Source of the DNA: Escherichia phage vB_EcoM-LTH02
Length of the DNA stretch: 64,000 bases
Direction: 5' to 3' (one strand)
Sequence record: PP430346
Under the pieces are notes generated by a model that had not been told where the DNA came from, ran no database searches, and saw nothing but the letters and a program-made list of their open reading frames with translations. Made by a program: the position numbers and the translations under genes. Shown here in pieces: positions 2,095 to 64,000 of this stretch (position 1 is the first letter of the stretch; every line of letters starts with the position of its first letter).

Positions 2095-2105
2095 GGTGAG
2101 TAAAA

Positions 2106-3452: not shown

Positions 3453-3463
3453 GGAACACAATA

Positions 3464-3841
3464 ATGGCATATCAAGGTTTTACTAAGTTAGGTAAAAGAG
3501 AACCTCTGAATGATATCATTCTTTGGGAACAGGTTACCCCAACAGGCCACTCTCGTAAAGAGTACACCCCAGTTGCTTCAACAGAATACCGTGTAGGTGA
3601 AGTTCTGAAAGCAGACGGTACTAAAGTTACAGCAGGACAAGAAGCTCAGGCTGATTCAGTATGTATCGTTAATTTCTACGCAGACCTGCAACTGTCTTAC
3701 CACGGTCAGTTGAAAGTTGTTGGTATCCACCGTGATGCAGAACTAAAAGACCTGCTAATTCTTGAATCAAGCGTTGATGCTGATGAAGTCAAGAAAGCTC
3801 TGGCTGCTAAAGGCATTGATTTCGTACCAACTGGCCTGTAA
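3464..3841 (+). CDS. Putative head decoration / minor head protein
   Basis: 125-aa ORF between protease/scaffold and major capsid gene, the position occupied by decoration proteins in lambda-like head modules. Confidence 0.35.
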   Translation: MAYQGFTKLGKREPLNDIILWEQVTPTGHSRKEYTPVASTEYRVGEVLKADGTKVTAGQEAQADSVCIVNFYADLQLSYHGQLKVVGIHRDAELKDLLILESSVDADEVKKALAAKGIDFVPTGL

Positions 3842-3874
3842 TAACAATAATAAGACATTCTGGAGAATTTTACA

Positions 3875-4981: not shown

Positions 4982-5001
4982 TAAACTTAGGAGGGTTATG
5001 A

Positions 5002-5451
5002 ATGTGTTATACAGGCGACCCAGCCAATAACCCTCTTGATAGAGTAAGAATCCTCTGCACAGACACCAATAATGACGAAATTCTTATTGAGCAGTCTGTG
5101 CTAGAGTGGTTCTATCTAGAATCTGGAAAGGATGAAAAGAAAGCAGCCATCAAAGCTCTTAAATATTTACTCTTTCAAGTAGCCAAGATGGGAGATGAGA
5201 AGGTTGGTGGTGTTTATTTACGTAACTCTTCCAGATTCAAATCTCTGAAAGCTGTTTATGATGACCTTGTTAAAAGCTCTGTTTCAGGACTACCCTATGC
5301 AGGTGGTATTAATCAGTGTGATATTGACATGCGTCGTCAGAATCCTTGCTCTGTCAAGAAATACACAGAATATGGTGATGCTGCCAGATACGAAGGCAGA
5401 GATTACTGCAACCGTGTTAATGGCGTATTTATTATCGAGCGAGATGAATAA
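5002..5451 (+). CDS. Head completion / head-tail adaptor (putative)
   Basis: First ORF after the capsid gene, RBS AGGAGGG upstream; positional assignment only. Confidence 0.35.
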   Translation: MCYTGDPANNPLDRVRILCTDTNNDEILIEQSVLEWFYLESGKDEKKAAIKALKYLLFQVAKMGDEKVGGVYLRNSSRFKSLKAVYDDLVKSSVSGLPYAGGINQCDIDMRRQNPCSVKKYTEYGDAARYEGRDYCNRVNGVFIIERDE

Positions 5452-5933
5452 TGGTTAAAAGGGTTATTCACCCCGCTAGAGCAAAATTAGTCGGGGCTAT
5501 GAAGAACTTGCAAACGGCTAATGCTCAAGTTGGGTATTTTCAAGAACAAGGTCAACATAGCTCTGGTTTTTCTTATCCTGCTTTAATGTATTTACAAGAA
5601 GTTATTGGGGTTCCTTCAGCTTCTGGTAAAGTATATCGTAGGTTGTTTGAAATCACTATGATGCTAAACAAACAGGCCTTGTTAGAGCAGACTAAGAAGA
5701 ATCTATATAAGCAACTTAGCAGTCTCAACACAGACCCTTCAAATACCTTAGAAGCATTTGCAAAGAATGCTCAAAAGGCAATTAAAAGAGGTTTTGGTAA
5801 TTCTGCTATCCTCCCTCCTAACGCACCTTCCACAGTCAAGAAAAAAGGCTTTAATGCACCTCTTGTTGAGACAGGTGACTTAAGAGATAACCTTGCTTAT
5901 AAAATTTCTACTAAGAAGGGTATTAAAAAATGA
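5451..5933 (+). CDS. Head-tail joining protein (putative)
   Basis: Translationally coupled ORF in the neck region. Confidence 0.3.
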   Translation: MVKRVIHPARAKLVGAMKNLQTANAQVGYFQEQGQHSSGFSYPALMYLQEVIGVPSASGKVYRRLFEITMMLNKQALLEQTKKNLYKQLSSLNTDPSNTLEAFAKNAQKAIKRGFGNSAILPPNAPSTVKKKGFNAPLVETGDLRDNLAYKISTKKGIKK

Positions 5934-6331
5934 GACTCTTAAACAGACACAGCTTTGTAGTAAAGCGTAAAGTCTCTGAAGACGGTTATTATAATGATGA
6001 TGGTGATTGGGTAGCTTCACAAGATATTGTAGAGGTTAACTGTAAAGGTAATATCCAGCCATACATCAAAGGTTCTGTAAAGAATGGTACACAGATTGCT
6101 TTACCGGAAGGTGTTAGGCTTACCGATACAAGAATCCTGTATACCACATATAAACTTAGAACTTCAGATGATGTAGAGTGGAATGAGTCTGACATTGTTA
6201 TGATTGATGGTCATGAGTATGAAGTATTTATGACTATGGATTGGTCACAGCAATTAGCCCATACGTCCCATTATGAATATATCATTATTAGAAGGGATAA
6301 AATGAATGCAGTTAGAAACAGCAGAACTTGA
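5930..6331 (+). CDS. Neck / tail completion protein (putative)
   Basis: Overlapping start/stop (ATGA) with the previous ORF; positional. Confidence 0.3.
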   Translation: MRLLNRHSFVVKRKVSEDGYYNDDGDWVASQDIVEVNCKGNIQPYIKGSVKNGTQIALPEGVRLTDTRILYTTYKLRTSDDVEWNESDIVMIDGHEYEVFMTMDWSQQLAHTSHYEYIIIRRDKMNAVRNSRT

Positions 6332-6905
6332 AAAAGGTCTAGTTAGAACCTTAGTGGATGTTATTGGTCACAGACTAGCTCGTGATAAGAATAATAGACC
6401 AAATGTAATTAGAGCTTACCCTTCTGATAACTCAAATGACAAAGGTTTAAAACCTGACCAGCCATTTATTACCGTATATTGTCAAGATGCTGCAACACCT
6501 TATGGTTGGGTTCTTGATAAGTTTGTTGAGGATGATGTAGTTTGCTACAGAATTGCTTTTCAGATTCCAGTATTAATTACGGTAAATGGTAAAGGTGCTC
6601 ACAGCATTATGCTTGAGCTTAAACAACGATTAGAGATGAGTTCAGTCAGAGATTTAATTCTTGAAGAGACAGGAGCTACAGTTCTAGATACTGGAGCTAT
6701 CCCAAATGACTATACTTATCTTAATACAGATTTCGAAAATTCTGCACCTCTTGTTGTAACTCTTGTAAAAAATTCAGTCCTGAAAGATGAACGTGGAAGT
6801 ATTATTGAACGTGTCATCGTTGATGGTGAATTAGTTTACGAAGAAGGACAAGAGCCACCAGAATATACTATCCATCTAGATGTAGACTCCAAAGGGGTAA
6901 AATAA
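6306..6905 (+). CDS. Tail completion / sheath terminator (putative)
   Basis: ORF immediately upstream of the putative sheath gene; positional. Confidence 0.3.
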   Translation: MQLETAELEKGLVRTLVDVIGHRLARDKNNRPNVIRAYPSDNSNDKGLKPDQPFITVYCQDAATPYGWVLDKFVEDDVVCYRIAFQIPVLITVNGKGAHSIMLELKQRLEMSSVRDLILEETGATVLDTGAIPNDYTYLNTDFENSAPLVVTLVKNSVLKDERGSIIERVIVDGELVYEEGQEPPEYTIHLDVDSKGVK

Positions 6906-8258
6906 ATGTGGAATCCAATTGTTAATGTAGATATTACATTGAACACCGCAGGAACTACAAGAGAAGGTTTTGGGCTACCACTATTTTTAGCTTCAACAGA
7001 TAACTTTGAAGAAAGAGTCCGTGGTTACACTTCCTTAACTGAAGTTGCTGAAGATTTCGATGAGAATACTGCTGCATATAAGGCTGCTAAACAACTTTGG
7101 AGTCAAACTCCTAAAGTAACTCAGCTTTATATTGGTAGACGTGCTATGCAGTACACTGTATCAATTCCTGATGCCGTTACCGAAAGTACAGACTACTCAA
7201 TTACTGTAGCTGCTGGCGGTGGAATTTCTCAACCATATCAGTATACAGCAATAGAGTCAGATACTGCTGAAAAAGTATTGCAACAGTTTAAGACACAGAT
7301 TGAAGCTGACCCAACAATCAAAGATAAGGTTTCTGTGAACGTAACTGGTAGTGGTGCTTCTGCCACAATGATTATTACCAAAGCTGGTGATAATGACTTT
7401 GTGAAAGTAACAACCACAGCACAGACTGTATATATTGCAAGCACAACTGCTGATACAGCATCAACTGCTCTGGCAGCTATTGAAGCTTATTCAACTGACT
7501 GGTATTTCATTGCAGCAGAAGATAGAACTCAACAGTTTGTCTTAGCAATGGCTTCTGAGATTCAGGCTCGTAAGAAAATCTTCTTCACTGCTAACTCTGA
7601 TGTAGCAGCACTGCAAGGCACAGAATTAAACAGTGCAAATGATGTTCCAGCACAGCTTGCTAAGAACATGTACACCCGTACAGTTTGCTTGTGGCATCAC
7701 ACAGCAGCAGAAGACTATCCAGAGATGGCATACATTGCTTATGGTGCTCCATATGATGCAGGGTCAATTGCTTGGGGTAATGCTCAGTTGACTGGTGTAG
7801 CTGCTTCTCTACAGCCAGCTAATAAGAGACCTCTGACAAGTATTCAGAAGTCTGCTTTAGATGCACGTCACTGTAACTTTATTGACCTTGATGGTGGTGT
7901 TCCAGTGGTTCGTAGAGGGATTACTTCTGGTGGGGAATGGATTGACATCATCCGTGGTGTTGACTGGTTAGAATCAGACCTGAAAACTTCTCTGAGAGAC
8001 TTGCTAATTAACCAGAAGGGTGGTAAGATTACTTATGATGATACTGGTATTACTCGTATTCGTCAAGTCATTGAAACCTCTCTACAAAGAGCAGTCAACA
8101 GAAACTTCCTGTCATCTTACACAGTTAATGTTCCTAAAGCCTCTCAAGTTGCTTTGGCAGACAAGAAAGCTCGTATCCTGAAAGATGTTACCTTCGCAGG
8201 TATCTTAGCAGGTGCTATCTTGGATGTTGACTTGAAAGGTACAGTGGCTTACGAATAA
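6906..8258 (+). CDS. Tail sheath protein
   Basis: 450-aa ORF followed by a ~150-aa ORF, a chaperone pair and the tape measure gene: the canonical contractile-tail order sheath-tube-chaperones-TMP. Confidence 0.5.
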   Translation: MWNPIVNVDITLNTAGTTREGFGLPLFLASTDNFEERVRGYTSLTEVAEDFDENTAAYKAAKQLWSQTPKVTQLYIGRRAMQYTVSIPDAVTESTDYSITVAAGGGISQPYQYTAIESDTAEKVLQQFKTQIEADPTIKDKVSVNVTGSGASATMIITKAGDNDFVKVTTTAQTVYIASTTADTASTALAAIEAYSTDWYFIAAEDRTQQFVLAMASEIQARKKIFFTANSDVAALQGTELNSANDVPAQLAKNMYTRTVCLWHHTAAEDYPEMAYIAYGAPYDAGSIAWGNAQLTGVAASLQPANKRPLTSIQKSALDARHCNFIDLDGGVPVVRRGITSGGEWIDIIRGVDWLESDLKTSLRDLLINQKGGKITYDDTGITRIRQVIETSLQRAVNRNFLSSYTVNVPKASQVALADKKARILKDVTFAGILAGAILDVDLKGTVAYE

Positions 8259-8273
8259 TAGAGGTAAATTGGA

Positions 8274-8720
8274 ATGGCTATGTATCAGCAATATTCCCCT
8301 AAAGACGTTGTATGTAGCTGGAATGGTATTGCCATTGAAGGCTTTGCCCCAGACTCATTCTTACGTCTACAGAGAACATCACCGCTTATCACACCAGTTG
8401 TAGGTGCGGGTGGTCAGGTTGCTCTGACAAGAAATGCAGACAAGACAGGTACTATTGAGATTGAGCTAATGCAGACTTCTCTCTCTAATCAGATGCTTTC
8501 TGCAATTCAAGCTAAACAAGACAATATGGAACTTGAAGAAGATATCTCTTCTAACTTCGTAATCTACGACCCATCAGGCTCTGTTCTGGCAACTGGTATC
8601 AATGCTTGGTTGCAGGAACTACCACAGATTGAACTTGGTCGTGACCAGAACTCTAAAACTTGGATTTTTGGTTGTGAGAAGCTAGACTACACTTCTACAA
8701 TTCCAGCGTCAAGTGTTTAA
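8274..8720 (+). CDS. Tail tube protein
   Basis: 148-aa ORF directly after the sheath candidate, followed by a strong terminator; positional. Confidence 0.5.
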   Translation: MAMYQQYSPKDVVCSWNGIAIEGFAPDSFLRLQRTSPLITPVVGAGGQVALTRNADKTGTIEIELMQTSLSNQMLSAIQAKQDNMELEEDISSNFVIYDPSGSVLATGINAWLQELPQIELGRDQNSKTWIFGCEKLDYTSTIPASSV

Positions 8721-9434: not shown

Positions 9435-17450
<8,016 letters not shown>

Positions 17451-50578: not shown

Positions 50579-50849
50579 AGAGAAGTGGGAGATTCTACCA
50601 TTAGTGAGTGAAGGTGGTAACGGCTGTGAGATGTACATGATACGTGGTCATGTCCCAGAACCAATTGCACTTGAGATGGTAAACAATTTTACAGATGGCT
50701 CTTACAAAGATTTAGGAGAGCCAACTATAAAGCATCAATGGGTCAAACCTGTACCAGACAGCACAGGTAACTGTAGTGTACTTTATCACGTTGTAGACCC
50801 TGCAAAATGCAAATCTGCAATGGCAGTAACAAACATAACCTTTGATTGA
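50571..50849 (+). CDS. Hypothetical protein (track start 50544 is TTG)
   Basis: ATG at 50571 overlaps the HNH stop. Confidence 0.3.
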   Translation: MAKEKWEILPLVSEGGNGCEMYMIRGHVPEPIALEMVNNFTDGSYKDLGEPTIKHQWVKPVPDSTGNCSVLYHVVDPAKCKSAMAVTNITFD

Positions 50850-50860
50850 GAGAGAAAACT

Positions 50861-51742
50861 ATGAAAACTGTTATTGAAGTCGTTGTCACCGCACAAGAGA
50901 AATTCTTCCACACAGAAAAATTTAATATCATCCAATTCCCATCTGGAGAAATTGGTGGAAACTTCTCTGAAGATTTTGTTAAGTTTACTGAGCGTAATGC
51001 TGGTAATATTGACAATGTTATACTTACTGTGCAGGGATATGATAAAGATACACTGTTTGCATTAGCTTTGGCTAAGGATGCCGTTGACAGCCTTGTTCCA
51101 CATAAATCAGCGATGAAAACCGTTGTTTTCGGGTTCTTACCGAATGCTCGATATGACCGCCATATGTTCAAAGGCGATTCAGCAGCACTAAAAGCTTTTG
51201 CCAACCTCGTTAATGCAATGGGCTTTGATGCAGTATGTGCTCTTGACCCTCACAGTAATGTTGCAGAAAACTTATTTAAGTGCTTCCAAAGCATGAAGCA
51301 AAAAGATGTGGCAGCACACTTCGCAAGTGACCCACGCATTGATTTCTTGGTAGCCCCAGATGCAGGTGCAGCTAAGAAGACTGAAGAGACTGCTAAAGAG
51401 GTGGATAAACCATACATCACAATGTCTAAAGTGCGTAACCTTAAGACTGGTGAAATTACTGGTATGCGAATCCTTGATGATGTTGATTTGACCGATAAAA
51501 CTGTCATGATTCTCGATGATATCTGTGATGGTGGTCGAACCTTCATAGAGGCAGCTAAACATCTTCGTGAAGCAGGTGCAAAACGTGTGGAACTCTATAT
51601 AACTCATGGCATTTTCTCTAAAGGTGTTGAAAACTTACTTGACAATGGTATTGACCATATCTACACTACAAACTCTTTAGGAGAAGCTAAAGACCGTGGC
51701 TTAACACATTATGCCCAAGTTACTGTAATTACCATTGATTGA
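50861..51742 (+). CDS. prs: Ribose-phosphate pyrophosphokinase-like enzyme (Prs homolog; candidate ADPR-pyrophosphate synthetase)
   Basis: PRPP-binding loop motif ILDDICDGGRT and overall Prs-like length; ATG at 50861 with purine-rich RBS (track start 50846 is TTG). Confidence 0.75.
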   Translation: MKTVIEVVVTAQEKFFHTEKFNIIQFPSGEIGGNFSEDFVKFTERNAGNIDNVILTVQGYDKDTLFALALAKDAVDSLVPHKSAMKTVVFGFLPNARYDRHMFKGDSAALKAFANLVNAMGFDAVCALDPHSNVAENLFKCFQSMKQKDVAAHFASDPRIDFLVAPDAGAAKKTEETAKEVDKPYITMSKVRNLKTGEITGMRILDDVDLTDKTVMILDDICDGGRTFIEAAKHLREAGAKRVELYITHGIFSKGVENLLDNGIDHIYTTNSLGEAKDRGLTHYAQVTVITID

Positions 51743-51787: not shown

Positions 51788-53569
51788 ATGACTAAATCAC
51801 TTTATGCAGTACCAGCAGGTTTAAATGCAGATGCTTACAAATCTGGTCACATTTACCAGTATCCTAGTGCAACAGAATACTTGATGTTCAACCTAACACC
51901 ACGTAGTGATAAATGGTTTAACAGCCCTTTATCAATTGACGGTGTAGTGGCTTTTGGTATTCAACGTTTTGTTAAAGATTACCTGATAGACCACTGGAAT
52001 GCCACCTTCTTTGAACGTGACAAAAAAGAAGCAATTGACGAAATCTTAGAAGTCATGAACGGTGTTCTGGGTAAAGATGCTATTGGTCGAGAACATTGGG
52101 AAGCACTCCATGACTTAGGTTATCTACCAGTTGAAGTATACGCTGTAGAAGAAGGCACAGTTGTTCCTATGCGTGTACCAATGATTGTCTTCCAGAATAC
52201 TGTTTCAGGTTTCCATTGGGTAGCTGGGTATCTGGAAGATGCTTTCTCTGCTGAGATTTGGAAGGCTTGTACCATTGCAACTATTGCATTGCACTACAAA
52301 CGTATCTGTAAGAAGTGGTCTGACCTTACTTGTGACAACGACTTGCATTTGCCTTATCAGTGCCATGACTTTGCTATGCGTGGTATGTCCGGCTTTACCG
52401 ATGACGCATTTAACGCTGTAGGCCACTTAACCAGCTTTAAAGGAACTGATAGCTTCCCTGCTGTGTATACAGCTAAACGCATCTATGGACAGTCCTACCC
52501 AATCTCTGATATTGGTAGCTCTGTACCAGCCACTGAACACTCTGTAATGTGTGCAAACATTGCTTGGGAAGGTGGTAGTGAGTTGATTGAAGAAGAAAGA
52601 CGCTTTAAAGGTGAGTTACAAACCTTCCGTCGTTTCTTAACAGAAACTTACCCAACTGGTATTGCAAGTGTTGTTTCAGACACTTATAACTTCTGGAGAA
52701 CTGTATCAGTCATATTACCAGAACTCCGTAAAGAGATTATGGAACGTAATGGCAAACTAGTAATTCGTCCTGACTCTGGAGACCCTGTACATATTGTCAC
52801 AGGCTATAAAGCAATCCATTTAGAGTGTGCTAAAAAGGCTTATTACGAACACTTAAGCAAGCTGGAAGCCAGCGACACAATGTTGAATGCTGTTCTGAAC
52901 ATGAAGCTTGAAAACATCAATTATGGTATTGCTGGATGGCTACTGTCAGAAGGCTACGAAATGGTTGTTGACAGAGAAGACTTTGAAGTTGCTGATACAG
53001 TGCTGTTGAAAAACGCTTATATGGTTGGTTCTGCAAACGTTGTAACACGTCCTGTAGCGGAGATTGATGGAGCTATTAAGACACTGTATAACATCTTTGG
53101 GGGGGCTATCAACTCTAAAGGCTTTAAAGTACTGGATGAGCATATTGGACTTATTTATGGCGACTCTATCACGTTGGAACGTGCAAATGAAATACTGAAG
53201 CGTTTGTATGAAATGGGTTTTGCAAGCTCTAACGTAGTGTTTGGTGTAGGTTCTTACACTTACCAGTACATGACTCGTGACACCTTTGCATTTGCTGTCA
53301 AAGCAACCCTTGCAAGCATTGGTGGTAAAGAGATTATGCTTGCAAAAGACCCTAAAACAGATAGTGGTGTTAAGAAGTCTGCTTTTGGTGGTGTAGCACC
53401 TATGTGGGATGGTGAAAATCTGAAAGCTGTAGATGGCTATGGGTTCCAGAGCTTTGCAGATGCACTTGAACATCCAGCTTGTGCTTTACGTCTAGTCTTT
53501 AGCGACTCTGAGCAGTTCGGCTACACAACTCTTGGTGATATTCGAAATAATATTGACAAGCAGCTTTAA
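51788..53569 (+). CDS. nadV: Nicotinamide phosphoribosyltransferase-like enzyme (NAMPT/NadV homolog)
   Basis: Type II phosphoribosyltransferase motif RPDSGDP plus NAMPT-like length; immediately downstream of the Prs-like gene. Confidence 0.75.
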   Translation: MTKSLYAVPAGLNADAYKSGHIYQYPSATEYLMFNLTPRSDKWFNSPLSIDGVVAFGIQRFVKDYLIDHWNATFFERDKKEAIDEILEVMNGVLGKDAIGREHWEALHDLGYLPVEVYAVEEGTVVPMRVPMIVFQNTVSGFHWVAGYLEDAFSAEIWKACTIATIALHYKRICKKWSDLTCDNDLHLPYQCHDFAMRGMSGFTDDAFNAVGHLTSFKGTDSFPAVYTAKRIYGQSYPISDIGSSVPATEHSVMCANIAWEGGSELIEEERRFKGELQTFRRFLTETYPTGIASVVSDTYNFWRTVSVILPELRKEIMERNGKLVIRPDSGDPVHIVTGYKAIHLECAKKAYYEHLSKLEASDTMLNAVLNMKLENINYGIAGWLLSEGYEMVVDREDFEVADTVLLKNAYMVGSANVVTRPVAEIDGAIKTLYNIFGGAINSKGFKVLDEHIGLIYGDSITLERANEILKRLYEMGFASSNVVFGVGSYTYQYMTRDTFAFAVKATLASIGGKEIMLAKDPKTDSGVKKSAFGGVAPMWDGENLKAVDGYGFQSFADALEHPACALRLVFSDSEQFGYTTLGDIRNNIDKQL

Positions 53570-56590: not shown

Positions 56591-57700
56591 ATGACTACTA
56601 AAACTAAAGCACAGATTGACGCAGAAATTTACAAACTGGTTAAAGAAGGCAAGCTGACTAAAACAGCTATTGCACAGAAGTTCAATACTTCAACCCGTTC
56701 AGTTGGTCGTGCTGTAGAGCGTCATGAAGCAACCTTAAAAGGTAAGAAAAAGGCAACTTCTAAGCCAGCTACAAAGACTTTGAAGCAAGTTGCTAAGTCA
56801 GTTAAAAAGAAAGCTGGCAAACCAGTTGAAAAGGTTGTTAAAGACACTGTACAGAAAGTTCCAGTAAATAAACTACACGAAGCTATGCAGAATGGTGACC
56901 GAATTGAGTATATGATTACTGGCGACTCTGTTATCATGACTTTCGGTGCAGATTCTGAAATCGTTGAGTCTACCCATCCGAACTACAAAGAAATTGTAAT
57001 GGCTGTTGTAGGTGGTGAGTACAAGAAAGCTTTCGAACTGATGAACATTCGTAAGTCTATCGAAAACTTCACTCAGGGTGCTATCACAATCAAAGGTGAT
57101 AAGTTGTTCTACGGTGCTGTTGAGATGCGTTCTACTCTGGTTGACCGCATTCTTCACATGATGAAGACTGGTGATAAAGGTTTTGAACGACTTGTAATGT
57201 TCTTCGAAAAACTGATGGAAAACCCATCTAAAGACTCTGTAGAACAACTTTGGGGATTTGTATCTCACCTTGATGTTGAAATTGATGAAGAAGGTTACAT
57301 CATTGGTTGGAAGAAAGTCTCTACTCGTGAAGGTAAGCTTGTTGACTCCCACACCTACAAAGTACCTAATGATTTGGGTAACATTGTAGAAATGCCACGT
57401 TGGATGGTTGATAACAACCGTAACGTGACTTGCTCTCAGGGTCTTCATGTTGGTGCTTGGGATTATGTTCGTTACTTCTCAGGCGATACAATCCTGAAGG
57501 TTCGTGTCCATCCACGAGATGTTGTATCTGTTCCGACTGATTACAACGATATGAAGATGCGTTCATCCCGTTATGAAGTTGCAGCAATCGTTGATAATCA
57601 GCGTAAAGTACTGAAAGCGTGGGATGGTAAGACTGAGGCTTTGCATGTCATCGTTGGCACTGCTGGTGAACTCATCTCCCAACGTAAACGTGAAATCTAA
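56591..57700 (+). CDS. rIIB: rIIB-like protein
   Basis: C-terminal half (LFYGAVEMRSTLVDRIL...HPRDVVSVPTDYNDMKMRSSRYEV) closely parallels T4 rIIB (LFYQNIELRSGLVDRIL...HPRDVVSIPIDYNDAKMRTCQYEV). Confidence 0.75.
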   Translation: MTTKTKAQIDAEIYKLVKEGKLTKTAIAQKFNTSTRSVGRAVERHEATLKGKKKATSKPATKTLKQVAKSVKKKAGKPVEKVVKDTVQKVPVNKLHEAMQNGDRIEYMITGDSVIMTFGADSEIVESTHPNYKEIVMAVVGGEYKKAFELMNIRKSIENFTQGAITIKGDKLFYGAVEMRSTLVDRILHMMKTGDKGFERLVMFFEKLMENPSKDSVEQLWGFVSHLDVEIDEEGYIIGWKKVSTREGKLVDSHTYKVPNDLGNIVEMPRWMVDNNRNVTCSQGLHVGAWDYVRYFSGDTILKVRVHPRDVVSVPTDYNDMKMRSSRYEVAAIVDNQRKVLKAWDGKTEALHVIVGTAGELISQRKREI

Positions 57701-57717
57701 TAAGTAATTTCTTAAAA

Positions 57718-57739
57718 GGCTGCTTCGGCGGCCTTTTTT
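57718..57739 (+). terminator. Rho-independent terminator after rIIB
   Basis: GGCTGC-TTCG-GCGGCC followed by TTTTTT. Confidence 0.6.
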
Positions 57740-57740
57740 A

Positions 57741-57769
57741 TTTGTATTTTGTGCAGAGTGCTGTATAAT
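57741..57769 (+). promoter_or_regulatory. Candidate promoter upstream of gene 57801
   Basis: TTTGTA, 17-nt spacer, perfect TATAAT (57764-57769). Confidence 0.4.
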
Positions 57770-57800
57770 TGTGGTCACGATAAACTAAACAGGAGAACCA

Positions 57801-58349
57801 ATGAAGAAGTTGATTCTAGGTTTGTGCTTAATGTTTACAGCACACTTATCTTATGCAGTTGACTGCCCAGAGCTATCAATTAGCCAAAAAGTAAACATGT
57901 TAAAAGCTTACCAGTATGGTGAGAATAATATGGGTAAAGGTTGGGGTATCACTCTAGCTGCTATAGCCTTACAAGAGTCAGAGTTAGGTCTGAAGGTAGA
58001 GAATAAAAAGACCCATGACTATGGTATTTTCCAGAATCACTTGAAGACTGTTGTAAAGCGTAACAAAATTAGTCCTAATGTGGCTAAAAAGAAACTCTTA
58101 AAAGACTTTGACTATGCTGCAAAGGAAACACACAAAGAGCTTGAGTTTTGGACGAAGGTACATGGTCAACCAAAGTCAAAGAAGACTTTACAAAAAGTTT
58201 TAGCGTCATATAATGCTGGGTATTCTTACAAAATCCCTAAAGCTAAGAAATATTCTCAGGATGTCTATAACAATATGAAAGTCATCGCTCAATGTGAATT
58301 TGCAACAAACATTTCTAAGGTAAATCATGAAAAAATTAAGAAAGTCTGA
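57801..58349 (+). CDS. Secreted lytic transglycosylase-like protein (candidate signal-peptide endolysin)
   Basis: Signal peptide MKKLILGLCLMFTAHLSYA; AIALQESELG...DYGIFQ resembles the catalytic E-S and GLMQ-type motifs of Slt-domain transglycosylases. Confidence 0.45.
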   Translation: MKKLILGLCLMFTAHLSYAVDCPELSISQKVNMLKAYQYGENNMGKGWGITLAAIALQESELGLKVENKKTHDYGIFQNHLKTVVKRNKISPNVAKKKLLKDFDYAAKETHKELEFWTKVHGQPKSKKTLQKVLASYNAGYSYKIPKAKKYSQDVYNNMKVIAQCEFATNISKVNHEKIKKV

Positions 58350-59022
58350 TGAAGTACTGTGTCATGCTTACGACTTGCATCCTCATGAGTTAGGTCTTGA
58401 TTCCTGTGTATGGACTCCAGAACAGTGCAGAGACTTTGAAGATACTGCAAGAGAAGTTGTATGTTCACTTGAAGAGTTCCACACATCAGAACCAATTGTG
58501 AACGTTGTGGACAAAGAGACTGGACAATTTATAGGTGTAAGACGTGACAGTTTAGTCATAGTCAATAAAGACCTTGTAGAAAAAGGTAACCTCATCTTAG
58601 CAGATATTGATGGTGTTCTTACAAATTTTAATCACGAAGATTGCTCAACGGAATTGACTGATGGGTCATTCTCACAGTACACTAATCTTCTTGACTCTGT
58701 AACAGCAAAACCAACGTATGTTTTTAGTATTATTGATGCAATCGCTAATCATGCTGCCATTGGACTCTTGACAGCAAGAGGTGAATCTCAGAGAATACCT
58801 ACTGAGATGTTTTTAAGGCATAACATAGAGCATGACTACATGCTTTTTATGCGTGGTTTTGGAACAAACTCTATAAGTGCAGAAAGTTTGAAAGTGAGGA
58901 TGATTCAGTCTTGCATTCTGCCTTACTTTAATATAGTATGCTTTATAGAAGATACAGAGATGAATGTTCAGAAGGTAAACAGAATCCTTCCACACATTAA
59001 AACCATGTTAGTTAAACATTGA
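58327..59022 (+). CDS. HAD-like hydrolase (putative phosphatase/nucleotidase); start uncertain
   Basis: LILADIDGVLTNF (motif I DxDG), GLLTARGES (motif II-like), FIEDTE (acidic motif IV-like). Confidence 0.3.
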   Translation: MKKLRKSDEVLCHAYDLHPHELGLDSCVWTPEQCRDFEDTAREVVCSLEEFHTSEPIVNVVDKETGQFIGVRRDSLVIVNKDLVEKGNLILADIDGVLTNFNHEDCSTELTDGSFSQYTNLLDSVTAKPTYVFSIIDAIANHAAIGLLTARGESQRIPTEMFLRHNIEHDYMLFMRGFGTNSISAESLKVRMIQSCILPYFNIVCFIEDTEMNVQKVNRILPHIKTMLVKH

Positions 59023-59032
59023 GAGAAAACTT

Positions 59033-59497
59033 ATGAACAATATCATTACGGTAGCACTGGACGATACGACAAACAAATCTGTAGTAGTTCGTAAATTGAT
59101 TCAAGGTAACTTTGAAGGTAAAATTTTTCGTGCTGTTAATGTAAAAGCTGATGGCAGCATTCGTGAATATCGTGCATTGTTGAATGTTAAAAAGCACGTA
59201 AAAGGTGCTGGTTCAACGACTGCACACAAAGAAAACCTGATGACTATTTATGATATGGGTAAGGCTTCAGAGTTAGGTGCTGAAGGTATCGTTAAAGAAG
59301 GTGCTCCGTATCGCTCTTTCAATCTGGAAACTACTCTTATGCTTTCCTTTACAAGTGGTTCTAAAACAATCACTTATCTCTTTACTGATGCTGCAACGGT
59401 ATCTGCTATTAAGGATGGCACTGTCAAAGCTGGCGTAGTTGCTGCTGCAAAAGCTTCTTCGATGGCTGCGAATATCCTTGCTAAAGTCCTCAGTTAA
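59033..59497 (+). CDS. Hypothetical protein
   Basis: 154-aa ORF followed by strong terminator. Confidence 0.35.
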   Translation: MNNIITVALDDTTNKSVVVRKLIQGNFEGKIFRAVNVKADGSIREYRALLNVKKHVKGAGSTTAHKENLMTIYDMGKASELGAEGIVKEGAPYRSFNLETTLMLSFTSGSKTITYLFTDAATVSAIKDGTVKAGVVAAAKASSMAANILAKVLS

Positions 59498-59509
59498 GGT
59501 TAAGATACA

Positions 59510-59530
59510 GGCTCCTTCGGGAGCCTTTTT
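59510..59530 (+). terminator. Rho-independent terminator
   Basis: GGCTCC-TTCG-GGAGCC followed by TTTTT. Confidence 0.6.
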
Positions 59531-59549
59531 CATTTCAGGAGATTGTTAA

Positions 59550-59897
59550 ATGACATTTAAAGAGTTCTGCCAAGCTACTTTCATAATTGTTTTCTTAGTT
59601 GGGGCAGGTGTCTGGGGAGGATACTCTTACAGAGACTACCAAGTTGCTGAAGCTGAGTTAAGCAATGAGAAACTAATAAGTGTTGCTAAAGATGCTTATC
59701 AGGAAGGTTTAGCCACACTCAGCACCAATTACAAAAATGATTTGAAAGATGTGCTTGCTAAGAATAAGCACACAAAAGAGGTACTAACATATGAAAAAAC
59801 TAAGCCAGAGTTTTATAATGTTTGTGTTACTGATAATTATGTCAGGGTGTTCAACGAACAAAGTGAACAGTACATTCAAAAACTCCCAAGTAAGTGA
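59550..59897 (+). CDS. Inner-membrane spanin-like protein (i-spanin candidate)
   Basis: N-terminal TM helix (ATFIIVFLVGAGVWGGY) then charged helical periplasmic domain; 3' end overlapped by an out-of-frame lipoprotein ORF. Confidence 0.45.
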   Translation: MTFKEFCQATFIIVFLVGAGVWGGYSYRDYQVAEAELSNEKLISVAKDAYQEGLATLSTNYKNDLKDVLAKNKHTKEVLTYEKTKPEFYNVCVTDNYVRVFNEQSEQYIQKLPSK

Positions 59898-60060
59898 GAG
59901 TGATAAGTACACTCAAGAAGAGTCAAGATTCACTATCAAAGGTAATACCGGCAGTGATGTGGCAGCAGCCCTTGAGTTTTATCGTGATGGTTTTTACCAG
60001 TGCACAATAAAAGCTAATAACCTTATTGATATGATTTTATTAGGGAACAAACAGCAATGA
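59791..60060 (+). CDS. Outer-membrane lipoprotein spanin-like protein (o-spanin candidate)
   Basis: Lipoprotein signal with lipobox (MFVLLIIMSGC); starts inside the previous ORF in another frame and extends past it. Confidence 0.45.
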   Translation: MKKLSQSFIMFVLLIIMSGCSTNKVNSTFKNSQVSESDKYTQEESRFTIKGNTGSDVAAALEFYRDGFYQCTIKANNLIDMILLGNKQQ

Positions 60061-60326
60061 CAGAGAATGAAGACACTTTCTATGTAGAAGGGTACTTACT
60101 GCTACCACGACCAAAAGAAACTTATATGCGGATTGATTTCTCACCAACCATTATGGATAATGTGATGTGTCATATTTTTATGCAAGGTATCACAGCACAA
60201 CTAAAGCATGTTGGTAAAGAGTGCAAAATAAAGGTTGACACTCATCCAGAAATCAAAGAGAATCACTACACATGGTTCTTACCAGACTCTAAAGAAATCT
60301 TAGCAGTTCTTAAAACGAGGAAATGA
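60057..60326 (+). CDS. Hypothetical protein
   Basis: 89-aa coupled ORF (ATGA overlap). Confidence 0.3.
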   Translation: MTENEDTFYVEGYLLLPRPKETYMRIDFSPTIMDNVMCHIFMQGITAQLKHVGKECKIKVDTHPEIKENHYTWFLPDSKEILAVLKTRK

Positions 60327-60637
60327 TTATGCAATTCCAGCCAACAAATCGTGGATTTTCTTATGCAGAATTTAAAGATGCTAAAGGGGAAATTTGTACT
60401 TTACAAGAGAGTTCATCATATGAACCATGTATCTGGTTAGGTGCTAAAGAGGTCTCTGTTCAGTACCTAGATGGTGGCTGGAAAACACTTGATATCCCAG
60501 CATTAGTAGGTAAAGATTTTGTAGGTAACCAAAGAATGAAACTCAATCAAGAACAGGTAAAAGAACTGTTGCCGTACCTTCAATACTTTGCTGAAAATGG
60601 TGAATTACCAACAGAGGAACTTACAAATGCAGATTAA
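60323..60637 (+). CDS. Hypothetical protein
   Basis: 104-aa coupled ORF. Confidence 0.3.
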   Translation: MIMQFQPTNRGFSYAEFKDAKGEICTLQESSSYEPCIWLGAKEVSVQYLDGGWKTLDIPALVGKDFVGNQRMKLNQEQVKELLPYLQYFAENGELPTEELTNAD

Positions 60638-60953
60638 TGGAAGAGACTTTGTAGCCGTTTACTATGAGAAAGGTAAAGAAGTTGGCGTAGCACAATTGTC
60701 TTATGGCAATGGTAAGTGGTTATATGGAACAATCGCAGTAGTCGGGACAAGAAGTGATACAAAAACTTTTAAAGATTGTGTTGACCTTCTTGAAGAATCC
60801 ATCCACAATCATTGGTGTCTGATATGGATGACCGCCGACGAAGTGAAGGAGCGTTTCAAAAAGATTGGTATCAACATTGACAGTGTTGAGCATGTTGATT
60901 TATATGAGCTAACTGAGAAGGTAAATTATGAAAGTAATACTAGCCAGAGATAA
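60627..60953 (+). CDS. Hypothetical protein (ATG at 60627 preferred over 60588)
   Basis: In-frame ATG overlapping the previous stop. Confidence 0.3.
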   Translation: MQINGRDFVAVYYEKGKEVGVAQLSYGNGKWLYGTIAVVGTRSDTKTFKDCVDLLEESIHNHWCLIWMTADEVKERFKKIGINIDSVEHVDLYELTEKVNYESNTSQR

Positions 60954-61161
60954 AAAGACTCGTAAGATTGTAAGTTCAGCAGTATTCAAAGGGAGACATA
61001 AAGTCGTCCCGTTTGCAGGAGAAGACGTGTTAACTTACAAGAAGGTGATGAAACGTGAGTGCAGTAACAATTTCCGTGACTTCTTCTCTGAACCATTAGA
61101 AGATTTTAAAAGTCGTTGTGGTAAAGGCATCATCATTCAAGAGGCAATTATTCATGGCTGA
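60928..61161 (+). CDS. Hypothetical protein
   Basis: 77-aa ORF. Confidence 0.3.
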   Translation: MKVILARDKKTRKIVSSAVFKGRHKVVPFAGEDVLTYKKVMKRECSNNFRDFFSEPLEDFKSRCGKGIIIQEAIIHG

Positions 61162-61354
61162 CTTCTGCAAAGATTGTGCTATCGAAATGTTCGGACGTGA
61201 TACAGGTGACTTAAAAGGTCTTATCACTGAAGATGACTTTAAAGCTGGCTATGCAATGCCAGTAATCTGTGAAGGTTGTGGATGTATCTGGGTAGACCAT
61301 GAAGGGCAACGTGTAAAACCTTCAGAAGACAAAGAATCTTGGGAGAGATGTTAA
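61154..61354 (+). CDS. Small zinc-ribbon protein (ATG at 61154 preferred over 61118)
   Basis: CKDC...CEGCGC cysteine pairs; ATG overlaps the previous stop. Confidence 0.3.
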   Translation: MADFCKDCAIEMFGRDTGDLKGLITEDDFKAGYAMPVICEGCGCIWVDHEGQRVKPSEDKESWERC

Positions 61355-62140
61355 ATGGGTATTGTAAAAATTATCAATGGTGATATCTTTGACGCATTTG
61401 ATAAAGGTAAGTTTGACATTATTGGTCATGGTTGCAACTGTATGAATTTCATGGGTGCAGGTATTGCAGCAACTATTTCTAAGCGTTATCCAAAAGTGTA
61501 TGATACTGATACAGAAGTTTACCTGTTTGCAGGTGGCATTCGTCACAAACCCTGTGAAAATTTACTAGGTAATTTCTCTGTAGCACGTTTAAAACAAGGT
61601 CGTATAGCTAACCTTTACACCCAACTTCATACTGGTAAAGATGCCCGATACAGTGCTTTAGAGTCATCTTTGAAGCAGCTTAACAGATACTGTGAAGTTA
61701 ATCAGTTGAAGAAAGTTGGCTTACCTATGATTGGTGCAGGTATTGGTGGGTTGGACCCTCAAGCCGTCACAGTTATCATCAATCAGGTTATGAAGAGTGT
61801 AGATGTCTATCTATATGTCTATGAAGGAGAAATGTACCACAAGTTACGCTCAGGTTGGAAGAACTACTGTGAACCAGAATACTTTGCAGGTGTAGTTGTG
61901 TTCACAGATGATACAGTTACCCTCTTCAGACGAAGAAAAGGTAAGATACATCAAAGTAACCCTCCGGTTGAGAAGATGTCTCTGAGTAACGCTCTAGTTA
62001 CCCACCTGTCGAAGAGCAATCACAGGATAGCCGTAACATTTGGCAGTGATGCAGATACATATATCTATGCAAGAACTGATGAGGATATCGAGACGGTCTT
62101 CTCTTCACCGGAAGTTACCTTCTTAGACGCAAAGAACTAA
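61355..62140 (+). CDS. Macro-domain protein (ADP-ribose binding/hydrolase fold)
   Basis: GDIFDAFDKGKFDIIGHGCNCMNFMGAGIAATI parallels the macro GDIT...IVNAAN...GGGVxGAI segment; LPMIGAGIGGLDP parallels the AFPAISTGIYGYP ribose-binding loop. Confidence 0.5.
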   Translation: MGIVKIINGDIFDAFDKGKFDIIGHGCNCMNFMGAGIAATISKRYPKVYDTDTEVYLFAGGIRHKPCENLLGNFSVARLKQGRIANLYTQLHTGKDARYSALESSLKQLNRYCEVNQLKKVGLPMIGAGIGGLDPQAVTVIINQVMKSVDVYLYVYEGEMYHKLRSGWKNYCEPEYFAGVVVFTDDTVTLFRRRKGKIHQSNPPVEKMSLSNALVTHLSKSNHRIAVTFGSDADTYIYARTDEDIETVFSSPEVTFLDAKN

Positions 62141-62210
62141 GAAACTCTGTATAATATTCACAATAGACCAAGCCTTTCTTATCTGGTAAATTTTTCAGGT
62201 AAGGAGGGCT

Positions 62211-62410
62211 TTTTCATTTCAGGATTGTGCAGGTAGAGTTCTGGACAGAAATCTGTAGAGAAAATTTTGAACTCCAAAGAGAAAATTCATTTTCAAACTG
62301 TGCAGGTAATCTCCAAAGAGCTTTTTCATTTTCAAAACGTGCAGACCCCGCTCAGGTCGGGCAAGAAAAATCATTTTAGAATTGTGCAGGTAGGTGGGTG
62401 CAGGTGGGGA
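62211..62410. repeat. Iteron-like direct repeats (4 clear + 1 degenerate copy, 40-45 bp spacing)
   Basis: TTTTCATTTCAGGATTGTGCAGGTA (62211), ATTCATTTTCAAACTGTGCAGGTA (62285), TTTTCATTTTCAAAACGTGCAGAC (62323), AAATCATTTTAGAATTGTGCAGGTA (62368), degenerate copy near 62250; followed by GTGGGTGCAGGTGGGG. Confidence 0.6.
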
Positions 62411-62569
62411 TGTCGCCATTTCTCACAAGGCTACCACATCTGAAAAGAAAAGTCAACAGAAAAATTTGTAGCGGGTTGAAAAATAATTCTTGATTGTAGT
62501 TCTGTTTTGTGGTAGTCGCGTGCGCCCGTTTCATTACAGTTTTTTGCAAAAATATTTTTAAAATTCCTA

Positions 62570-62598
62570 TTGACTCTCTGACTATGGTTATTTAGTAT
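62570..62598 (+). promoter_or_regulatory. Candidate sigma70-like promoter for the 3' small-gene array
   Basis: TTGACT (62570-62575), 17-nt spacer, TAGTAT (62593-62598); 5'-UTR hairpin GGGGAGGGAATGAACTTCCCC at 62609-62629. Confidence 0.45.
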
Positions 62599-62664
62599 TT
62601 GCATCAACGGGGAGGGAATGAACTTCCCCACTAAACAAAATCCTTAAACTAGGAGATTCAAAAA

Positions 62665-62871
62665 ATGATTTACAGCCGTGAATTGATGGTCACAACTAAC
62701 GTTAACACAAAGGTAAAACGTTTTTATATGCAAGTATGCGGCGCATGGCGTAGAATATCAGAATCTGACTATTGCAACTATGTAGAAACGGCTATTAATT
62801 CTAATTGCTATCTTACAAGAAACACTAAGAAATTTACAAGGCAGACAGCGATTTACTACTACGACAAATAA
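62665..62871 (+). CDS. Small protein 1 of 3' array
   Basis: 68-aa ORF with GGAGA RBS; stop codon forms the start of the downstream palindrome. Confidence 0.4.
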   Translation: MIYSRELMVTTNVNTKVKRFYMQVCGAWRRISESDYCNYVETAINSNCYLTRNTKKFTRQTAIYYYDK

Positions 62872-62957
62872 AGTACTTTACAGGGGGCTTAAAAGCTGAT
62901 ATCTTAAGCCCCAGATAAAGAGCTTTACCACTAAATCCTAAACTGGAGAACTTAAAA
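62869..62957 (+). promoter_or_regulatory. Repeated leader cassette A: palindrome TAAAGTACTTTA - GC hairpin - TAAAGAGCTTTA - RBS
   Basis: Palindrome 62869-62880; stem GGGGCTTAA/TTAAGCCCC (62884-62912); second half-palindrome 62916-62927; GGAGA then ATG at 62958. Confidence 0.6.
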
Positions 62958-63341
62958 ATGGCATACCGTGCACCTAAATTCATCAACAAAGACAACTTTC
63001 GCAACGCACTGGAGAAGTCACTTGATGAAAATTTTAAAGGTAACATTATCGTTGTTCACGCATTCAATTTTAAGTATGATGTAAACGGGAATAGAATCAA
63101 CCATTACACAGCAACCATGTTAGATGGTACGCTATCAAGTGAAAAAGCTGTACTGAATGCACTTGCAGGACGTGGTAAAAACCTGATAAGATGCGATAAG
63201 AGACGTTATCAGGGTGGCGCATATGGTTATGATGATGCTGTTTATCATCTTGAAAATATGGGCTATTCAGTGGAAAAAGCTGGAGCATCACAAATCATCG
63301 GCAGCGATGGTTATGTAACTATCTTCAAAATTAACAAATAA
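62958..63341 (+). CDS. Small protein 2 of 3' array
   Basis: 127-aa ORF between cassettes A and B. Confidence 0.45.
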   Translation: MAYRAPKFINKDNFRNALEKSLDENFKGNIIVVHAFNFKYDVNGNRINHYTATMLDGTLSSEKAVLNALAGRGKNLIRCDKRRYQGGAYGYDDAVYHLENMGYSVEKAGASQIIGSDGYVTIFKINK

Positions 63342-63426
63342 AGTACTTTACAAGGGGCTTATAGTTCGATAAAGTAAGCCCCAGATAAAGAGCTTTACCA
63401 CTAAATCCTAAATTGGAGATTCAAAA
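63339..63426 (+). promoter_or_regulatory. Repeated leader cassette B (same architecture, different hairpin loop)
   Basis: TAAAGTACTTTA 63339-63350; stem GGGGCTTA/TAAGCCCC with loop TAGTTCGATAAAG; TAAAGAGCTTTA 63386-63397; ATG 63427. Confidence 0.6.
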
Positions 63427-63684
63427 ATGGCTATTATCAAAAACGTTGTAATTACCGCAAAGACTCGTGATGACGCTCGTATCATGGCTAAAAAGTTATG
63501 CGGGAAAGTGGTTGACAACGGAAAACAATCTGCTGTAAGGTGGGGCGTGAAGGTTGATAAACAGTTAACTTTAAAACGCAGTTCAAACAACCTTTTTAAA
63601 GGTGTAAAAACACTCGGTAAAGTGAACGTGTTCACTAAACAAGGTTACAAAATGCACTTATCTTTAACTGGCAATTTAATCTGA
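63427..63684 (+). CDS. Small protein 3 of 3' array
   Basis: 85-aa ORF between cassettes B and C. Confidence 0.45.
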   Translation: MAIIKNVVITAKTRDDARIMAKKLCGKVVDNGKQSAVRWGVKVDKQLTLKRSSNNLFKGVKTLGKVNVFTKQGYKMHLSLTGNLI

Positions 63685-63772
63685 TAAAGTACTTTACAAG
63701 GGGCTTAAAAGCTGATATCTTAAGCCCCAGATAAAGAGCTTTACCACTAAATCCTAAACTGGAGATTCAAAA
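63685..63772 (+). promoter_or_regulatory. Repeated leader cassette C
   Basis: Same palindromes and a hairpin (63700-63728) identical to cassette A; ATG 63773. Confidence 0.6.
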
Positions 63773-63943
63773 ATGAAAACTGTAGACGCTACCTTTGAAG
63801 TTGTAAAAGAAAAATTTTCCATCATTTACGAAGCTGTTAATTGCTACGAAGCAAGCCATAACCTTGATAATTGGGAATTTACAGACAACCATCAAGGCGG
63901 TGTTACTGTTAAAAATCCTATTTATCAGCGTAATGAGTTTTAA
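63773..63943 (+). CDS. Small protein 4 of 3' array (56 aa, not in track)
   Basis: ATG preceded by cassette C RBS; open to TAA at 63941-63943. Confidence 0.4.
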   Translation: MKTVDATFEVVKEKFSIIYEAVNCYEASHNLDNWEFTDNHQGGVTVKNPIYQRNEF

Positions 63944-64000
63944 TATGCAATCCCTTTACATTACAGCCTGAAACAGCTTTCGAGTGACTATGCAAAACAA

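Follow-up and report, generated by a model that had tools for sequence, protein, structure and literature searches.

What is the task of a macro-domain protein in a phage which also encodes its own route for rebuilding nicotinamide adenine dinucleotide (NAD+)? This question is raised by a gene of Escherichia phage vB_EcoM-LTH02 (sequence record PP430346), of which a stretch of 64,000 nucleotides, here called the window, was analyzed. The gene (61355-62140, plus strand) is a complete coding sequence with an ATG start, 261 amino acids (aa) and a stop codon, and its product consists of a macro domain followed by a second domain. With a probability of roughly 85% this protein is an active ADP-ribose C1'' hydrolase directed against host immunity that is based on NAD+ or ADP-ribose (ADPR). 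Its main role would, as a tentative first choice that stays somewhat below even odds, be the reversal of DarT2-type thymidine ADP-ribosylation, as for the T4 protein Tk.4. We infer catalysis, substrate and the role of the second domain from sequence and from a structural model.

The initial annotation had described the 261-aa open reading frame (ORF) on the plus strand as a macro-domain protein and had quoted motifs of this fold. All of them were recovered, with GDI spanning aa 9-11, IIGHGCNCMNFMGAGIAATI aa 22-41 and LPMIGAGIGGLDP aa 123-135. The assignment holds for aa 1-157 (61355-61825, plus strand), for which Pfam, an alignment of homologues, AlphaFold2 and Foldseek all yield a macro domain, but not for aa 158-261, a separate domain making up about 40% of the protein that had been overlooked. 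The Pfam family Macro (PF01661) matched aa 25-141 (E 5.3e-7; 30 bits against a cut-off of 22 bits). The AlphaFold2 model of the full-length protein (predicted local distance difference test score, pLDDT, 89.3; predicted template modeling score, pTM, 0.88) shows the two domains, 1-157 and 158-261, as separate units. When this model was compared with the PDB by Foldseek, TARG1 (E 1e-9, template modeling score (TM) 0.83), Thermus aquaticus DarG (E 1.6e-9, TM 0.80), Poa1p (E 5e-9, TM 0.75) and Mycobacterium tuberculosis DarG (E 2e-8, TM 0.79) were returned, with TM values, normalised to the target, of 0.75-0.84 over the TARG1, DarG and Poa1p targets. A sequence profile recovers the same set of structures at about 1e-15.

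To describe the active site, an alignment of 23 homologues was used. Invariant in this family are H25, G26, N28, C29, M33, G36, A38, P46, D52, G72, N86-L87-Y88-T89-Q90, P124 and G127-A128-G129-I130, and the phosphate-binding loops M33-G34-A35-G36 and G127-A128-G129 do not vary among the 23 homologues either. H25 and N28 are kept in homologues with as little as 27% identity and in both of the allele classes described below. The motifs H-x-C-N-C, N-x-Y-x-Q and P-x-I-G-x-G are common to the window protein, yeast Poa1p, the Adpp protein of Vibrio phage Gary and T4 Tk.4, with Poa1p having Ser where the other three have Gln. This position is the one at which DarG, TARG1 and the PhiKZ protein have a Lys, which is placed opposite Gln90 of the window protein by HMMER, MAFFT and BLASTP alignments alike. 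Because of these common motifs and of Q90, the window protein is assigned to a His/Asn/Gln (‘Poa1p-like’) clade and not to the Lys-type DarG/TARG1 group. The set of ADP-ribose-binding and catalytic motifs is intact, but the site which it forms is of the Poa1p type (His/Asn/Gln) and not of the DarG/TARG1 type (Asn/Lys). As judged from sequence and model, the N-terminal part of the protein is confirmed as a predicted ADP-ribose-processing macro domain with a complete set of binding and catalytic motifs.

TARG1/OARD1 (PDB 4J5R) is the top match in both sequence and structure (profile E 8.7e-16, TM 0.83). In the HMMER alignment, however, its residues K84 and D125, which are reportedly catalytic, stand opposite Q90 and G131. 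MacroD-type macro domains are characterized by the motifs Nx6GG[VLI]D and G[VIA][YF]G, and neither of them occurs in the window protein, in which N28-CMNFM-G34-A-G-I-A has no Asp and G129-I-G-G has no aromatic residue. These observations bear on the idea that another ADP-ribose conjugate is hydrolyzed, be it mono-ADP-ribosylated protein, RNA that was ADP-ribosylated by CmdT-like toxins, O-acetyl-ADP-ribose from sirtuin-type defenses or a cyclic ADPR signal. The macro superfamily acts on all 1''- or 2''-linked substrates, the similarity to TARG1/OARD1 fits such a role, some public records name the gene ‘O-acetyl-ADP-ribose deacetylase’ or ‘high-affinity ADP-ribose binding module’, and a macromolecular substrate would go well with an additional domain. 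Yet, with the K84/D125 dyad and the MacroD-type motifs missing, and with no homologue of the His-type clade having been shown to act on any of these conjugates, this explanation appears unlikely and serves as a residual category.

The best match to a characterized protein was T4 Tk.4 (tblastn against the window: 33% identity over 160 aa, E 1.1e-20), for which the 100% identical T2 sequence (1498-1962 of the T2 stretch) stood in. T2 and T4 are naturally resistant to DarTG2, and tk.4 was the only T4 gene found to be conditionally required on DarTG2, with a clean deletion sensitizing the phage (HIDEN-SEQ preprint, 10.1101/2025.11.20.689424). Its authors named the gene AdfM (anti-DarT factor macrodomain) and deduced, without an assay, that its product removes ADP-ribose from DNA (10.1101/2025.11.20.689424). 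The window protein and Tk.4 share the motifs HGCNC, MG-x-G, NLYTQ and P-x-IGAGIG as well as the Gln that replaces the DarG Lys, and both are encoded by early accessory genes with hypervariable alleles between conserved flanks. In the case of Tk.4 this variability is seen between the two Tequatroviruses T2 and Shigella phage Shfl2, whose Tk.4 proteins are 58% identical, compared with 99% for regB, vs.1 and vs and 93% for tk.3; tk.2 is also only 56% identical between these two phages. There are, however, clear differences. Tk.4 is a single domain of 155 aa, whereas the window protein adds an orphan domain of 104 aa; T4 lacks the NAD+ pathway NARP1, whereas the window phage has it; the Trp following the GG loop of Tk.4 (GNW/GDW) is replaced in the window protein (GLDP); and genetic evidence against DarTG2 exists for Tk.4, whereas the window protein is known here from sequence and model. 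Since Tk.4 belongs to the same His-type clade and is needed against DarTG2, the earlier suggestion that the window protein could remove ADP-ribose marks set by the host gains support by analogy.

A second group of DarT2 antagonists is formed by the macrodomain of DarG2 (PDB 5M3E, 5M3I) and by PhiKZ gp104, for which stripping of ADP-ribose from DarT2-modified single-stranded DNA has been validated biochemically (PMC13309987) and which was likewise named AdfM. The window protein resembles DarG2 in its fold (TM 0.79-0.81), its macro part is matched by the PADLOC hidden Markov model for DarG (E 9.7e-15), and the active-site Asn required in both proteins (N22 of T. aquaticus DarG, N23 of PhiKZ gp104) is aligned with N28. 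DarG2 consists of two domains and PhiKZ AdfM is phage-encoded, and the window protein is likewise both. In these proteins, however, a catalytic Lys (K80 and K78, respectively, within FPTK) takes the place of Gln90, and the His corresponding to H25 is lacking. PhiKZ gp104 (12518-13006 of the PhiKZ stretch) is a genuine DarG homologue with an FPTK motif (E 9e-25 to M. tuberculosis DarG), and its similarity to the window protein is low (tblastn: 24.5%, E 2e-3; protein comparison: 25%, 1e-5). The two proteins which were both called AdfM in 2025-2026 hence differ in subtype, PhiKZ gp104 being Lys-type and DarG-like and T4 Tk.4 being His/Gln-type and Poa1p-like. In the texts searched of the three papers dealing with Adpp, Tk.4 and PhiKZ AdfM, none of these proteins is cited alongside another.

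The variability of the gene becomes apparent from a comparison with the Felixounavirus phage finno, which is collinear with positions 57301-64000 of the window at a DNA identity of 86-94%. Over approximately 61497-62190 of the window (4001-4780 of the finno stretch) this similarity is lost. The two macro proteins are only 39% identical (50% within the macro domain and 23% within the C-terminal domain), whereas the flanking proteins are 90-100% identical, including the abutting Cys-rich ORF with 100% and the next ORF downstream with 95%. The finno-type allele was found in 13 records with at least 95% identity to finno, and nothing was found from there down to approximately 42%. One carrier of this allele, FSL SP-107, encodes a Namat protein, the second enzyme of NARP1, that is 97.8% identical to the one of the window, and phage VpaE1 and a record named ‘VpaE1_ev035’ carry opposite allele types. 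All catalytic motifs and the two-domain layout are kept in both alleles. Rapid replacement of alleles while the active site stays fixed would be expected if a protein faces variable host factors, and less so if it is a pure metabolite phosphatase.

Two further differences between the window and finno lie upstream. A segment of about 280 bp (60334-60613), comprising most of a 104-aa ORF (60323-60637), has no counterpart in finno, with both of its sides being collinear, and the product of a 77-aa ORF (60928-61161) is only 70% identical. Both point to further putative flux of small genes just before the macro gene.

The C-terminal domain (aa 158-261; 61826-62137, plus strand) was delimited by the AlphaFold2 model and by homologue searches. 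It is predicted to be β-rich, with six strands and a short helix, and is modeled with a pLDDT of 78-92 in the context of the full-length protein and of 76.5 when modeled alone. It diverges faster than any other part of the protein and is absent from Tk.4 and from every Adpp protein encoded within a NARP1 operon. A phmmer search of 1.84 billion representative sequences gave two matches to this domain, both being macro proteins of Ounavirinae. In Pfam, only one match to the PH domain (E 0.07) was obtained, no PADLOC model matched, including the one for the toxin-binding C-terminal domain of DarG, no similarity to solved folds was found, and the BFVD search returned solely the SUSP2 orthologue. 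Three candidate clues to its nature had to be dismissed. A seemingly standalone homologue of 114 aa (P0025), which came up in a profile search, turned out to be a finno-type gene split by a frameshift on a 1.4-kb contig. A conserved basic hairpin (RRRKGK) had been considered as a hint to DNA binding, but the type-B allele has YQLVDGK at this place and the isoelectric point of the domain is 6.5. An equivalence to the toxin-binding domain of DarG is backed neither by sequence nor by structure. An addition to a macro domain of this clade was also observed in a metagenomic homologue (P0018, 339 aa), in which a His-type macro domain is joined to a different C-terminal region with the Pfam domain PF20274; this is another, independent accretion of a domain.

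A hypervariable C-terminal domain and dimorphic alleles would suggest an arms race between proteins, and sponge proteins are a known strategy of phages, so that the macro protein could also be pictured as a non-catalytic binder or sponge of ADP-ribose, or as a decoy for a host defense protein. However, the catalytic residues of the Adpp/Poa1p/AdfM type do not vary among the 23 homologues or between the two allele classes, which argues that an enzymatic site has been retained and makes a protein without catalysis very improbable.

If the enzyme acts against DarT2-type toxins, it would be expressed from the early-gene region as an accessory counter-defense enzyme, and its His-type macro domain would bind the ADP-ribose moiety. 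His25 and Asn28, with Gln90 at the site of the DarG/TARG1 Lys, would then cleave off the group that C1'' of the distal ribose carries. ADP-ribose would in this way be removed from thymidines in the single-stranded DNA of the phage, and replication would be shielded from the toxin. The lineage-specific, hypervariable C-terminal domain might serve as a module for the recognition of a substrate or a partner. This role is ranked first because Tk.4 gave the best score among the homologues, because the motifs by which most in-operon Adpp proteins can be told from Tk.4-like ones are in the Tk.4 state in the window protein (HGCNC, NLYTQ, IGAGI), because the mode of evolution is shared and because a domain has been added. 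Such an extra domain is easier to reconcile with a macromolecular target, and a layout of two domains recalls, by analogy, DarG2 with its macro and toxin-binding domains. The PADLOC match to DarG, the place of TARG1 and DarG at the top of the structural matches and the alignment of N28 with the Asn of DarG and PhiKZ AdfM also count in favor of this role.

Several points weigh against this ranking. Gln90 stands where DarG2, TARG1 and PhiKZ AdfM have their catalytic Lys (K80, K84 and K78, respectively), and Gly131 stands where TARG1 has D125; Tk.4 has Gln as well, but its activity as a DNA de-ADP-ribosylase was inferred and not shown biochemically (10.1101/2025.11.20.689424). With 33-34% identity, Tk.4 is no closer to the window protein than some in-operon Adpp proteins are, as in a trimmed alignment the values overlap (Tk.4 34%, Adpp proteins 25-36%, with phiPsa374 reaching 36%). 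The motif states were rejected as a discriminator, as the in-operon Adpp of Acinetobacter phage phiAbaA1 also has HGCNC, YTQ and IGAG, and motifs which are shared in this way do not define a function. A neighbor-joining tree of 33 macro domains (200 bootstraps) was rejected for the same purpose, since only the Ounavirinae clade was robust (100%) and the deeper nodes lacked support. The C-terminal domain is, as described above, unlike that of DarG or any solved fold. Finally, no published trial of a Felixounavirus on DarTG2 was found, and the PhageMaP panel of 33 defense systems includes neither DarTG nor aRES.

The PhageMaP data can nevertheless be linked to the macro gene, as g95 of the Felixounavirus Bas63, annotated as ‘putative phosphatase’, is very probably its orthologue; the gene count starting from g79-80 agrees with this assignment. 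For g95, the part of the PhageMaP results that covers laboratory strains and a portion of the 33-system panel gives positive fitness scores, i.e., the gene is dispensable there. Dispensability in laboratory strains is expected of a conditional anti-defense gene.

The strongest competitor for the main role arises from the NAD+ pathway of the phage. The initial annotation had spoken of a candidate pathway from ADPR to NAD+, and this pathway proved to be NARP1, which was discovered and validated in Bas63 (genes 79-80) and consists of Adps and Namat. In the window, the orthologues of g79-80 are located on the plus strand at 50846-51742 (Adps; Prs-like, with Pribosyltran and Pribosyl_synth domains; first enzyme) and at 51788-53569 (Namat; Nampt-like, with NAPRTase and NAMPT_N domains; second enzyme). 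In Vibrio phage Gary, Adpp (KNV71_gp137) converts ADPR-1''-phosphate to ADPR and thereby lets NARP1 rebuild NAD+, with ADPR-1''-phosphate being the product of NAD+ phosphorolysis by aRES, a defense with a RES domain (10.64898/2026.01.28.702374). About 15% of NARP1 operons have a macro gene no more than two genes away from Adps/Namat, and the Adpp mutants H24A and N27A have lost their anti-aRES phenotype (10.64898/2026.01.28.702374). It is thus conceivable that the window protein acts as an Adpp in trans, turning the ADPR-1''-phosphate made by aRES, which is unusable for Adps, into ADPR from which Adps and Namat rebuild NAD+. This is regarded as a serious possibility, although a somewhat less probable one than the reversal of DarT2-type modification, and it is only under this explanation that Adps and Namat would be partners of the macro protein.

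Gary Adpp is homologous to the window protein (tblastn: 28% identity, E 8e-13; 28-36% for Adpp proteins in general) and belongs to the same His-type clade; its essential residues H24 and N27 correspond to the family-invariant H25 and N28, and it also has Gln at the position of the DarG Lys (NVYGQ in Gary). As Adpp and Poa1p, which are distant from each other within the clade, are both ADPR-1''-phosphate phosphatases, this activity is plausibly clade-wide and would be expected of the window protein too. In vitro it is rather probable, whichever role dominates. NARP1 is present in the same genome and validated for the genus, NARP1 alone is beaten by aRES, and E. coli, Klebsiella and Enterobacter are the sources of the cloned aRES systems. 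Across Ounavirinae both genes are core genes and co-occur, with 260 records for Namat (at least 60% identity) and 256 for the full-length macro protein. RyDEP provides a second precedent for accessory enzymes that feed NARP1. An unlinked macro gene would have been missed in the Adpp study, because a range of two genes on either side was scanned and its Table S1 lists no Escherichia, Salmonella or Klebsiella phage (10.64898/2026.01.28.702374). The earlier proposal that the protein could feed ADP-ribose into the reconstitution of NAD+ is supported by this analogy with Adpp.

Other observations speak against an Adpp acting in trans. The distance of ‘8 kb’ given by the initial annotation amounts to 7,786 bp from the end of Namat (53569) to the macro start, a range which includes 13-14 ORFs, namely a small ORF, rIIA, rIIB and ten more small ORFs of the early region. 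The macro gene hence does not lie within two genes of Adps/Namat, the arrangement by which NARP1-AP operons are recognized, and it belongs to a different transcription unit, as the annotation of phage AYO145A places promoters and terminators between NARP1 and the macro gene. The approximately 129 in-operon Adpp proteins are all single-domain, whereas the window protein has its extra domain, and most of them show HQxNC, NxYGQY with a longer loop, and IGCGL. In addition, the macro family is far commoner than Namat (2,984 phage records in total; 997 against 191 Escherichia records), from which it follows that most of its members function without NARP1. A dimorphism with 39% identity is unexpected for a metabolite phosphatase while Namat is 97.8% identical in the same genomes. 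The phage panel tested against aRES contained no Felixounavirus (10.64898/2026.01.28.702374).

The DarT2-directed and the Adpp-like role are not mutually exclusive, since in both a leaving group is expelled from C1''. The same active site would then also dephosphorylate ADPR-1''-phosphate, and the resulting ADPR would be usable by the phage's own NARP1. In its fullest form this idea describes a bifunctional factor of two modules, which would repair DarT2-modified DNA and convert ADPR-1''-phosphate to ADPR, with a C-terminal domain for recognition or as a decoy and with two ancient alleles maintained by frequency-dependent selection. The C-terminal domain would in this case engage a variable host defense protein, in analogy to the toxin-binding domain of DarG2. 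As a whole, including this part, such a combination is rather doubtful.

The founding enzyme of the clade, Poa1p of Saccharomyces cerevisiae (PDB 6LFQ/6LFR), shares with the window protein the macro fold (TM 0.75; profile E 8.8e-15), the CNC motif and the absence of the catalytic Lys, and its H23, which was mutated by the depositors of the structures, is the same His as H25. The identity is about 26% to what we take to be the full Poa1p sequence, which was checked by its agreement with the mutant names H23A, S30A and F152A only. Poa1p differs by a long insertion before the P-loop-like strand and by S30 and F152, which are not conserved (F32 and G131 in the window protein), and it is a cellular, non-viral enzyme of tRNA splicing. 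A function modeled on Poa1p would be the clearance of a by-product of RNA repair, i.e., of ADPR-1''-phosphate derived from Appr>p that is formed by a 2'-phosphotransferase of the Tpt1/KptA type during tRNA repair. A 231-aa ORF 2.3 kb upstream (58327-59022) is called ‘polynucleotide kinase’ (PHROG 3970), and PhageMaP notes for gp107 of Bas63 a ‘slight’ resemblance in structure to the domain with which RNA 2'-phosphotransferase binds NAD. However, neither Tpt1 nor a cyclic phosphodiesterase was identified in the 64-kb window, and Pfam gave no match for the Pnk-like protein. Nor is the by-product known to do enough harm for a core gene to be selected for its removal. T4-type RNA repair is not known to make 2'-phosphate junctions. 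Clearance of this by-product as the main task is therefore hardly probable. A hint that RNA repair and the reconstitution of NAD+ may be linked by gene neighborhood comes from another phage, Vibrio phage Luma (stretch 1-8468), in which genes annotated as RNA ligase/tail attachment protein and as RNA ligase 2 lie on either side of a NARP1-AP operon (Prs-like, macro, Nampt-like).

The window belongs to a Felixounavirus, its DNA being 92-97% identical to that of about 200 Felix O1-like phages (Felixounavirus) of Escherichia, Salmonella and Shigella. Compared with phage AYO145A, 19 codons of the gene differ synonymously and 4 non-synonymously, which indicates that the ORF is real and under purifying selection. 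Public records name its product hypothetical protein, phosphatase, putative phosphatase or macro domain protein; the orthologues in Felix O1 and AYO145A (gp014) are termed ‘phage conserved protein’ and ‘phosphatase’, respectively, and the protein matches PHROG 335, ‘phosphatase’ (E 4.5e-115). A GGAGA Shine-Dalgarno sequence precedes the ATG. The stop codon of the ORF upstream (61154-61354, plus strand; 66 aa, Cys-rich with CxxC...CxxC; PHROG 2210 of unknown function) abuts this ATG, which suggests translational coupling. The Cys-rich protein is 98-100% identical even in phages with the divergent macro allele, and it may be a coupled partner of the macro protein or merely mark the edge of the recombination block.

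At its other end the gene is followed, 30 nt past the stop codon, by a terminator-like hairpin on the plus strand (62170-62211; 17 pairs, 6 of them G-C, then a T-run), and in AYO145A a rho-independent terminator is annotated at the equivalent place after the orthologue. Downstream of the hairpin lies a repeat-rich spacer, and the next convincing gene begins at 62665. The macro gene thus closes its transcription unit, in line with its earlier description as the last gene before an iteron-like non-coding region. This region contains, at 62205-62390, four to five copies of a unit of approximately 28-34 nt (…TTCATTTTCAAA-N-GTGCAG…) with a spacing of 39-73 nt; weaker copies extend to 62549, and a promoter-like site (62570-62598) is found downstream of the repeats. 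Further downstream, a 92-nt intergenic cassette occurs three times with 83-100% identity (62868-62959, 63338-63429 and 63684-63775), and many more copies are present in finno. Each copy stands in front of a small ORF and contains, besides a hairpin (GGGGCTTA…TAAGCCCC), a leader that is conserved, an ATG and a Shine-Dalgarno sequence; the cassette resembles a terminator/promoter-leader module belonging to the array of small early genes. A candidate counter-defense pair lies upstream of the macro gene. An SLT-like ORF of 182 aa (57801-58349) and the 231-aa ORF mentioned above correspond by gene count to g84 and g85 of Bas63, which were identified by PhageMaP as co-essential counters of the defense system qatABCD.

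The annotation of a macro domain in public records and, as a kind of mechanism, counter-defense by phage macro proteins are already known. What appears to be new is that a core gene of Felixounaviruses is tied to both Adpp and Tk.4/AdfM, that the T4 ‘AdfM’ and the PhiKZ ‘AdfM’ are recognized as different types of active site, and that an orphan C-terminal domain and a discrete allele dimorphism are described. As Adpp and T4 AdfM belong to one His/Asn/Gln clade, either their site is promiscuous for leaving groups at C1'' (phosphate, thymine) or one of the two assignments needs to be revisited. Felixounaviruses of the Bas63 type serve as the model for NARP1. If the unlinked macro protein supplies Adpp activity, the statement that NARP1 fails against aRES would not be valid for them, and searches for operons within two genes on either side would underestimate the frequency of the extended pathway. 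If the bifunctional combination were true, the textbook NARP1 phage Bas63 would effectively be a NARP1-AP phage with its pathway split across 8 kb. The orphan C-terminal domain and the dimorphic alleles, in turn, mark a hotspot of the arms race in phages that are used for therapy and for the typing of Salmonella and E. coli.

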